Position numbers and translations under genes: made by a program | IMG/VR virus record: IMGVR_UViG_3300029468_000145 | Source of the DNA: a virus | Lineage: Duplodnaviria; Heunggongvirae; Uroviricota; Caudoviricetes | Reading direction: 5' to 3' (one strand) | DNA: 4,389 bases | Notes under the pieces: model-generated | What the model was told of the DNA's origin: nothing | Database searches by the model: none | What the model saw: only the letters and a program-made list of their open reading frames with translations | Shown: positions 353 through 1,446 of the stretch, one piece after another | Numbering within the stretch: the stretch's first letter is position 1 | How the letters are laid out: every line of letters begins with the position of its first letter

Positions 353-394
353 NNNNNNNNNNNNNNNNNNNNNNNNNNNNNNNNNNNNNNNNNN
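353..394. other. Run of 42 N: assembly/scaffold gap or masked sequence
   Basis: Uninterrupted N characters at 353-394. True length and content unknown; reading frames cannot be carried across it. Confidence 0.95.
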
Positions 395-1032: not shown

Positions 1033-1058
1033 AACCCGCCGAGTGCGGGTTTTCTTTT
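1033..1058 (+). terminator. Intrinsic (rho-independent) terminator T1
   Basis: Stem ACCCGC (1034-1039) pairs with GCGGGT (1045-1050) around a 5-nt loop CGAGT, followed by T-run TTTTCTTTT (1050-1058). Lies 21 nt after the TAA at 1010-1012 that closes the frame-2 reading frame. Confidence 0.6.
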
Positions 1059-1063
1059 ATCTG

Positions 1064-1088
1064 AACTCGCTACGGCGAGTTTTGTTTT
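1064..1088 (+). terminator. Intrinsic terminator T2, tandem to T1
   Basis: Stem AACTCGC (1064-1070) pairs with GCGAGTT (1075-1081) around tetraloop TACG, followed by TTTGTTTT (1081-1088). Ends 3 nt before the GGAGA Shine-Dalgarno of the 1102 ORF. Confidence 0.55.
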
Positions 1089-1101
1089 ATGGAGACAAGA
1101 A

Positions 1102-1446
1102 ATGTCAGATTTGGCTATGAAAGTTTTGAAATGGCAATCGACTGGCGATGTTGGCATCAGTAGCGCAACTCTTGCCTCAATCGCATGTGGACTGAAAAAG
1201 AATATCTATGATCATGGCTTCGGTGCTCCACATGACGCAGCCGATTTCAGACGATGCGTTGCACTTGTTGAGCAGATTCCAGAAATCAGAGATTCATTCG
1301 ACAAGGTTGCAAAGCGCGTTCCGGCATTCAAAGGCATCCTCAACGAATGGGATTCTCTCGTTGCTCTGTTGAAGTCTGAAATGAAGATACACGGAAACAA
1401 AGCACCAGAGACTTACAGAAGAATCAGCGAGCTACGCAAGGACTAA
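1102..1446 (+). CDS. Hypothetical protein (114 aa), function unknown
   Basis: ATG at 1102 with GGAGA (1091-1095) 6 nt upstream; TAA stop at 1444-1446. Clean ORF with ordinary composition and no overlapping plausible alternative. I do not recognise a family from the sequence (MSDLAMKVLKWQSTGDVGISSATLASIACGLKK...). Confidence 0.65.
   Translation: MSDLAMKVLKWQSTGDVGISSATLASIACGLKKNIYDHGFGAPHDAADFRRCVALVEQIPEIRDSFDKVAKRVPAFKGILNEWDSLVALLKSEMKIHGNKAPETYRRISELRKD

Follow-up and report, generated by a model that had tools for sequence, protein, structure and literature searches.

Expression of xis and int in phage lambda takes place from pL and by way of N antitermination. The N protein binds boxB RNA and, with NusA, NusB, NusE and NusG, leads the polymerase to ignore intrinsic and Rho-dependent terminators over many kilobases. 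The tL1, tL2 and tL3 sites of lambda have reportedly been characterised experimentally by Luk and Szybalski. In a more distal region of lambda, believed to be transcribed from pL (PMC4195576), three further terminators, t3, t4 and t5, have been predicted at exactly the hairpins considered below (PMC4195576, Table 4). The position of the first of these hairpins also carries a label in GenBank, 't-L4' in the record of phage 434 (M60848) and 'tL4 terminator' in that of HK022 (X51962), and the 434 record goes on to annotate ORF55, ORF114, a second terminator named t'I, and then xis and int. Both tL4 labels are annotations, and no measured termination at lambda t3/t4 or at the hairpins described here, nor any measured tL4 function in lambda or HK022, was found in the searchable literature.

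We analysed a 4,389-nt stretch of viral DNA (IMG/VR record IMGVR_UViG_3300029468_000145, hereafter referred to as the window) containing two such hairpins, T1 and T2, upstream of a 114-aa gene.

Results

The window lies at the int end of a lambdoid prophage

Positions 400-1750 of the window were 100% identical to E. coli EH01-18-04-A, and the whole window gave an end-to-end alignment with the same locus at 99.0% identity (local blastn). The annotated neighbourhood in this strain (hereafter referred to as L001) is a complete lambdoid prophage adjoining sbcB, of which the window constitutes the int end. A cro-like gene, cII and genes for replication run in one direction of the prophage; in the opposite direction come the gene for a LexA-family repressor, N, ral, recT, ea22-like genes, a DUF550 gene and an 80-aa ORF, followed in the same direction by a theta-like pseudogene, a 114-aa ORF and the gene for a small helix-turn-helix (HTH) protein, after which come an integrase gene on the opposite strand and host sbcB. 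Window positions 353-394 are a run of 42 N, opposite which the near-identical L001 has 29 nt comprising the end and stop codon of the DUF550 gene; the masked stretch therefore differs in length from L001 or is other than the sequence found there.

The original prediction had viewed the locus within a P4 framework, in which the hairpins might form part of an RNA-based termination or immunity switch. The P4/CP4-island flavour of the window is limited to the integrase family and a weak, sub-cut-off AlpA-like match of the HTH protein, whereas cI, cro, cII, replication genes, N, nutL, ral, recT and ea22-like genes mark the element as a lambdoid prophage. No P4-related RNA family was detected in the window, the genomic context does not provide a P4-like element carrying an immunity RNA and target sequences for it, and the hairpins are homologous to those of lambda. 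The P4 framing was therefore abandoned, and a switch of this type is considered to have practically no chance of being the correct explanation.

The N protein of the prophage was recognised by Pfam family N36 (E 3e-25) and has the N-terminus MDAQTRRRERRAEKQAQWKAAN; the sequence upstream of its gene is GGCTCTTAAAAATTAAGCCCTGAAGAAGGGC. The nutL boxB within this upstream sequence, GCCCTGAAGAAGGGC, at L001 4998-5012, is identical to the annotated nutL hairpin of lambda and lies on the same strand as T1, 7.6 kb upstream from it, the corresponding distance in lambda being about 6.2 kb. All genes from N to the excisionase-like gene are on the + strand, with no other-strand gene between the nut site and T1. 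The same pL operon contains another terminator-like tandem pair (L001 6518-6535 and 6556-6575), the hairpins of which match those of the lambda tL2 region, in the interval between ral and cIII.

Two intrinsic-terminator hairpins lie just upstream of the ribosome-binding site of the 114-aa gene

Upstream of the hairpins, the window contains an 80-aa ORF (511-753, + strand; phrog_9613, function unknown, a hypothetical protein in L001) and a DNA polymerase III theta-like (HolE/Hot-like) gene (731-1012, + strand), after the 3' end of which T1 is found. The theta-like gene has an in-frame TGA at 881-883. Pfam family PF06440 matches both of its halves (E 2.5e-16 and 1.3e-7), and it is annotated as a pseudogene with an 'internal stop' in L001 and in two other prophage copies, L207 and L208. 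The TGA was identical in every prophage copy examined (L001, L207 and L208), and the two halves sit in separate PHROGs families. The gene could represent a conserved pseudogene, a pair of small ORFs or a case of stop-codon readthrough.

T1 (1032-1060, + strand; stem 1032-1052) was identified by pattern scan as a hairpin of eight pairs, five of them G-C, with a loop of 5 nt and the tail TCTTTTATCT. Its RNA reads GAACCCGC-CGAGU-GCGGGUUU followed by a U-tract, corresponding in DNA to GAACCCGC-CGAGT-GCGGGTTT. T2 (1063-1090, + strand; stem 1063-1082) has eight pairs, four of them G-C, a UACG loop and the tail TGTTTTATGG; it reads GAACUCGC-UACG-GCGAGUUU followed by UUUUGUUUU as RNA, and GAACTCGC-TACG-GCGAGTTT as DNA. 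RNA folding gave -12.0 kcal/mol (z -2.65) for T1 alone, -11.9 kcal/mol (z -4.65) for T2 alone and -23.9 kcal/mol (z -3.67) for the 62-nt segment comprising both, for which the minimum free energy structure and the centroid were the same two hairpins. On the reverse strand, the stems are followed by A-rich rather than T-rich sequence, indicating that T1 and T2 are signals for the + strand only. The window is not short of terminator-like patterns in general (8, against 4.1 +/- 1.9 in shuffles, about a twofold excess), and conservation is the stronger evidence for T1 and T2. The presence of two tandem hairpin and T-run terminators on the + strand before the 114-aa gene, as first proposed, was thus borne out by scanning, folding and conservation. 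T2 does lie directly before the GGAGA of this gene, as had also been proposed, but the gap is of 2 nt (AT) and not the 3 nt quoted: the T-run ends at 1088 and is followed by AT, GGAGA (1091-1095) and the ATG at 1102.

The T1 and T2 units of the window are alike at about 22 of 31 positions (stems GAACCCGC and GAACTCGC), and the window type of T1 may be a diverged duplicate of T2, to judge from this resemblance. A T2 variant in one further locus (L216), GAACCCGCTGCGGCGGGTT, is nearer still to the T1 of the window. We also considered whether the hairpins could be the 3' end of a known prophage sRNA and rejected this identity: the Pas sRNAs and the AgvB/AsxR anti-sRNAs are encoded elsewhere, at loci near tRNA-like sequences or downstream of PR'.

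T2 and the T1 tail are homologous to the tL4 region of lambda-like phages

A distant search of a phage collection returned 281 records, with homology starting from window position 1047. For lambda, 434, HK022 and Stx2 phage 1717, homology begins at 1047-1048, in the 3' arm and tail of T1, and the T1 tail plus T2 is 89.7-91.4% identical to lambda, 434 and HK022 over 57-58 nt. The lambda sequence is AATCCTCGCACTCGCGGGGATTTATTTTATCTGAACTCGCTACGGCGGGTTTTGTTTTATGGAGA, located between ea8.5 and orf55 at roughly 29356-29305. T2 and t4 of lambda are homologous and one base apart (A for G), so that a pair which is U.G in lambda is U-A in the window. In 434 and HK022, the first hairpin has the form ATCCTCG...CGAGGAT or ATCCTCGC...GCGGGGAT; it is followed by the same U-tract, TTTCTTTTATCT, the same second hairpin, GAACTCGCTACGGCGGGTTTTGTTTTATGGAGA, and orf55, and then by a further hairpin holding the orf55 stop codon, GGAGACAAGAAATG and ORF114. 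T1 of the window takes the place of tL4 of 434 and HK022 and of t3 of lambda, but its stem (GAACCCGC...GCGGGTT) is unrelated both to AATCCTCGC...GCGGGGATT of lambda and HK022 and to the stem of 434. Since this stem is not homologous, the window is assigned to the tL4 type through T2 and position. Position, strand, homology, a G+C-rich hairpin with a U-tract, and the presence of N and a nut site upstream all agree with this assignment.

The downstream side of the pair also differs between these phages. T2 abuts orf55 in lambda, 434 and HK022, whereas the window lacks orf55 and its T2 abuts the ribosome-binding site of ORF114, forming a direct T2-ORF114 junction like that of Stx2 phage 1717. Two features are therefore particular to the window: the absence of orf55, and the non-homologous T1 stem, which travels with the upstream theta-like gene. 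The alignment with HK022 falls into two pieces overlapping by 20 nt in the window (1085-1104), and this overlap corresponds to a repeated motif, TTTTAT(T)GGAGA / TTTTAT(T)GGAGACAAGAAATG, present on both flanks of orf55 in HK022. This is a pattern that recombination at the repeat formed by the terminator tail and the ribosome-binding site could leave, whether orf55 was lost or acquired.

In both lambda and HK022, the TGA stop codon of orf55 is located in the loop of the next terminator hairpin (GCCGCC-TGAT-GGCGG; L084 1729-1710, corresponding to about 29128-29109 of lambda, and L002 499-520). A ribosome ending the translation of orf55 would therefore cover the 5' arm of this hairpin, which could couple translation to readthrough.

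The pair is widespread and its pairing is conserved

The unit consisting of the T1 tail and T2 was found in 1457 of 5426 complete E. coli genomes (about a quarter) and in more than 140 viral contigs, in addition to lambda, 434 and HK022; the full window-type version was present in 79 of the 5426 genomes. Among 113 viral contigs chosen by the T2 core alone, about 102 had a hairpin at the T1 position, with at least five types of stem on the same U-tract, and the other 11 (about 10%) had no convincing T1 hairpin, which indicates that the tandem layout is not obligatory. The window type of T1 stem was always preceded by the theta-like gene and followed by T2 (32 of 32 viral contigs). After the T2-GGAGA unit, the 113 contigs had orf55 (77 contigs), ORF114 (20), a 99-aa ORF (9), an 83-aa ORF (4) or other genes. 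The direct T2-ORF114 junction was observed in about 35 of the 80 viral contigs bearing ORF114.

Across 40 distinct T1/T2 variants, 95.9% of cells were paired overall, and 99.4% for T2. The changes were mostly wobble-compatible: one T1 pair occurs as U.G, U-A or C-G and one T2 pair as U-A or U.G, with a C-G form of the latter in L216, and there is one double change. Covariation in these 40 variants was not distinguishable from that in column shuffles, because the sequences are 96% identical. The support for T1 and T2 from sequence comparison is thus the conservation of pairing, the replacement of whole stems, and wobble-compatible and isolated double changes, and no statistical covariation is claimed.

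No promoter-like site accompanies the pair

The consensus scan identified no promoter on the + strand anywhere in the window. A relaxed scan (-10 of at least 5/6, or TG plus at least 4/6, or at least 9/12 overall) likewise identified no -10/-35 site on the + strand between 877 and 1206, in agreement with the earlier proposal that there is no promoter between the terminators and the start of the 114-aa gene. Expression of this gene must therefore come by readthrough from upstream. The view that it relies on readthrough or antitermination is accordingly upheld, the gene having no promoter of its own, and N and the nutL boxB lying upstream.

It had alternatively been suggested that a promoter embedded in the terminator DNA drives constitutive expression of the 114-aa gene. 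The T-rich tails do contain weak -10-like TTTTAT sequences (1055-1060 and 1085-1090), and an overlap of terminator and promoter has been predicted for another lambda terminator, t2/p1 (PMC4195576), but neither the strict nor the relaxed scan gave a site at 877-1206, and the best promoter that could be assembled by hand in the T2 tail scored 7/12, with a start at about 1097, downstream of the ribosome-binding site. We consider an embedded promoter very improbable.

A trp-type attenuator was also considered, in which the 3' arm of T1 and the 5' arm of T2 would form an antiterminator, with control exerted by translating ribosomes on either a short ORF (1028-1120) or the theta-like gene. This 30-codon ORF spans both hairpins, and the near-identity of the T1 and T2 stems (GAACCCGC and GAACUCGC) makes cross-pairing possible. 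The cross-paired form has an energy of only -5.2 kcal/mol, however, far weaker than the -12 kcal/mol of each terminator, and T2 is the only one of the two that it could block. A ribosome-binding site is lacking for the short ORF, the ATG of which is missing from lambda-type T1 variants, the stop codon of the theta-like gene is located 20 nt upstream of the T1 stem, and no Rfam leader or riboswitch family was matched. With no comparable antiterminator, conserved leader ORF or Rfam match, attenuation of this kind appears highly unlikely. The sole Rfam match in a whole-window E-value scan was to rsmX, at 24 bits, below the gathering threshold of 56; it is explained by the two terminal hairpins and was rejected as noise.

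On the + strand of the window, TGnTATAAT is matched perfectly at one place only, the candidate extended -10 element TGtTATAAT at 470-478, which precedes the 80-aa ORF by 33 nt. All of 32 related copies (13 sequence variants) preserve it unchanged while their flanking bases vary, and no -35 match accompanies it. This candidate is a possible source of unmodified transcription for T1 and T2 to stop, should it be active in lysogens. In the ribosome-binding site of the 80-aa ORF (495-510), the G-run differs among copies (GGGGAG, or 6, 7 or 8 G).

A third hairpin precedes the excisionase-like gene

The 114-aa gene, with its GGAGA (1091-1446, + strand; ATG at 1102, stop codon at 1444-1446), corresponds to ORF114 of phage 434 and to HK022p30 (phrog_1229). 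ORF114 had no Pfam family and no solved-structure relative, and its PHROG matches were confined to families of unknown function. Directly 3' of its stop codon, at 1448-1466, is a hairpin (GCCTCA-N7-TGAGGC) with no U-tract, which is kept in 434, HK022 and torI-type prophages; a mosaic joint at 1474-1478 lies just past it. ORF114 resembles the morons in being a small accessory gene with terminator-like hairpins on both sides that is exchanged as a unit (1047-1478), and was rejected as a moron in the strict sense, since it has no promoter of its own (no + strand site at 877-1206).

A third terminator-like hairpin, T3 (1483-1510, + strand; stem 1483-1502), was identified by pattern scan and RNA folding. 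It has an 8-bp stem (GAGCCGCT-ATAT-GGCGGTTT) and the tail CTTTTTGCCT (-10.5 kcal/mol, z -3.12), and is separated by 4 nt from the GGAGAA that serves the excisionase-like gene downstream. T3 is the positional analogue of t'I of 434 and t5 of lambda, to which it is unrelated in sequence. The gene that follows, the last of the leftward operon, encodes a 63-aa HTH protein (1524-1715, + strand) that is probably an excisionase, given its position and its match to phrog_66, 'excisionase and transcriptional regulator' (E 1.9e-8); its Pfam AlpA match is a weak one (E 0.0032), with 17.8 bits falling short of the curated cut-off of 21. The convergent tyrosine integrase gene (1696-2874, - strand; Arm-DNA-bind_3 and Phage_integrase domains) overlaps the 3' end of the excisionase-like gene by 20 bp (1696-1715). 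The integrase gene is not in the pL transcript, its orientation being inverted with respect to lambda.

A terminator-like hairpin is therefore found before each of three unrelated excisionase modules, those of lambda xis, TorI and the HTH protein of the window: lambda-type xis is preceded by t'I or t5 of lambda, and torI, in L207, by a hairpin resembling t'I. This recurrence supports selection for such placement. K-12, whose CPS-53/KplE1 was considered as a source of published 3'-end data, has neither ORF114 nor the T2-ORF114 junction.

The mosaic structure of the region also bears on a further explanation, according to which the hairpins are mainly stabilisers of mRNA 3' ends or conserved boundaries for cassette exchange, termination being incidental. 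Mosaic joints do coincide with hairpins: homology to lambda, 434, HK022 and 1717 runs from 1047, that to torI-type prophages stops shortly ahead of T3 (1474-1478), the T2-GGAGA unit is followed by five or more different genes, and the junction without orf55 overlaps both orf55 flanks of HK022 by 20 nt. Such a role would not, however, exclude termination, for which the G+C-rich stems and the U-tracts of 8-9 nt are precisely what is needed; a recombination linker would have no need to keep its pairing when the stem is replaced, and the exact linker, TTTTATGGAGA, occurs just once in the prophage. As a replacement for termination, this explanation is unlikely, although a boundary or stabilising role is compatible with the data and may be additional to termination.

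Discussion

We propose, with a probability of about 85%, that T1 and T2 are tandem intrinsic terminators of the distal pL operon that are read through by N-modified polymerase. According to this proposal, polymerase that has not been modified at nutL, whether it came from leaky pL transcription in the absence of N or had started at an internal promoter, for which 470-478 is a candidate, would be released at T1, or at T2 if it escaped the first hairpin, in either case some 7-9 nt beyond the stem. The terminated transcripts would thus stop short of the ribosome-binding site from which the 114-aa gene is translated. On induction or infection, N bound to the nutL boxB RNA would, together with host Nus factors, produce a termination-resistant polymerase able to pass T1, T2 and T3, resulting in expression of the 114-aa and excisionase-like genes. 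From the hairpins, their conservation and the N-nutL system upstream, we infer termination at T1 and T2, N-dependent readthrough and an insulating role. With int inverted and outside the pL transcript, the three stacked terminators would serve mainly to tie xis, and hence excision, to the antiterminated state. The lysogen would thus be predicted not to express the 114-aa and excisionase-like genes, for which N-antiterminated transcription from pL would be the sole route of expression.

A more speculative extension, which we regard as possible but doubtful, is that the unit formed by the T1 U-tract, T2 and GGAGA does two jobs, insulating the xis-like gene from transcription initiated at 470-478 in the lysogen and serving as a preferred crossover point for lambdoid phages. 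The 470-478 promoter may then drive the 80-aa and theta-like genes, and exchange may take place on either side of the unit, involving upstream genes that each bring a T1 stem of their own and downstream cassettes that include orf55, ORF114 and the 99-aa ORF, among others. Were this so, the terminator stack would be the main barrier to spurious excision in phages with an inverted int.

The analysis changes the classification of the element from P4-like to lambdoid and re-identifies a conserved lambda-like regulatory feature, with little import beyond correct annotation. Its comparative value is modest: the junction made by the terminator tail and T2 is very widespread and is a place where mosaic exchange occurs, and unrelated excisionase modules all keep a terminator directly upstream.

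Comparison with known systems places T1 and T2 among the terminators of the pL operon. Like tL1, the tL2 cluster and tL3 of lambda, they are intrinsic, arranged in tandem or clusters, and located in an operon dependent on N and nutL. The integration module of the window is arranged like that of Phi24B, in which int is inverted and escapes CI control, xis still being under pL, as shown experimentally (PMC3064807); in both cases, int lies outside the pL transcript and xis is in the pL orientation, which makes excision alone dependent on the derepression of pL. Terminators upstream of xis are not discussed in the Phi24B paper (PMC3064807), and the likeness is one of arrangement, the only other link being a note on the phage 86 integrase in the 1717 record. 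The closest counterparts are the tL4 region of 434 and HK022 and t3/t4 of lambda, which, as in the window, occupy the distal pL operon between the accessory (ea/exo-xis) genes and xis and consist of tandem hairpins separated by a 10-nt spacer, with GGAGA directly after them; in 434 and HK022, ORF114 lies downstream of the pair, as it does here. T1 and T2 are thus the known and very widespread tL4 region of lambda-like phages and not a new termination switch.
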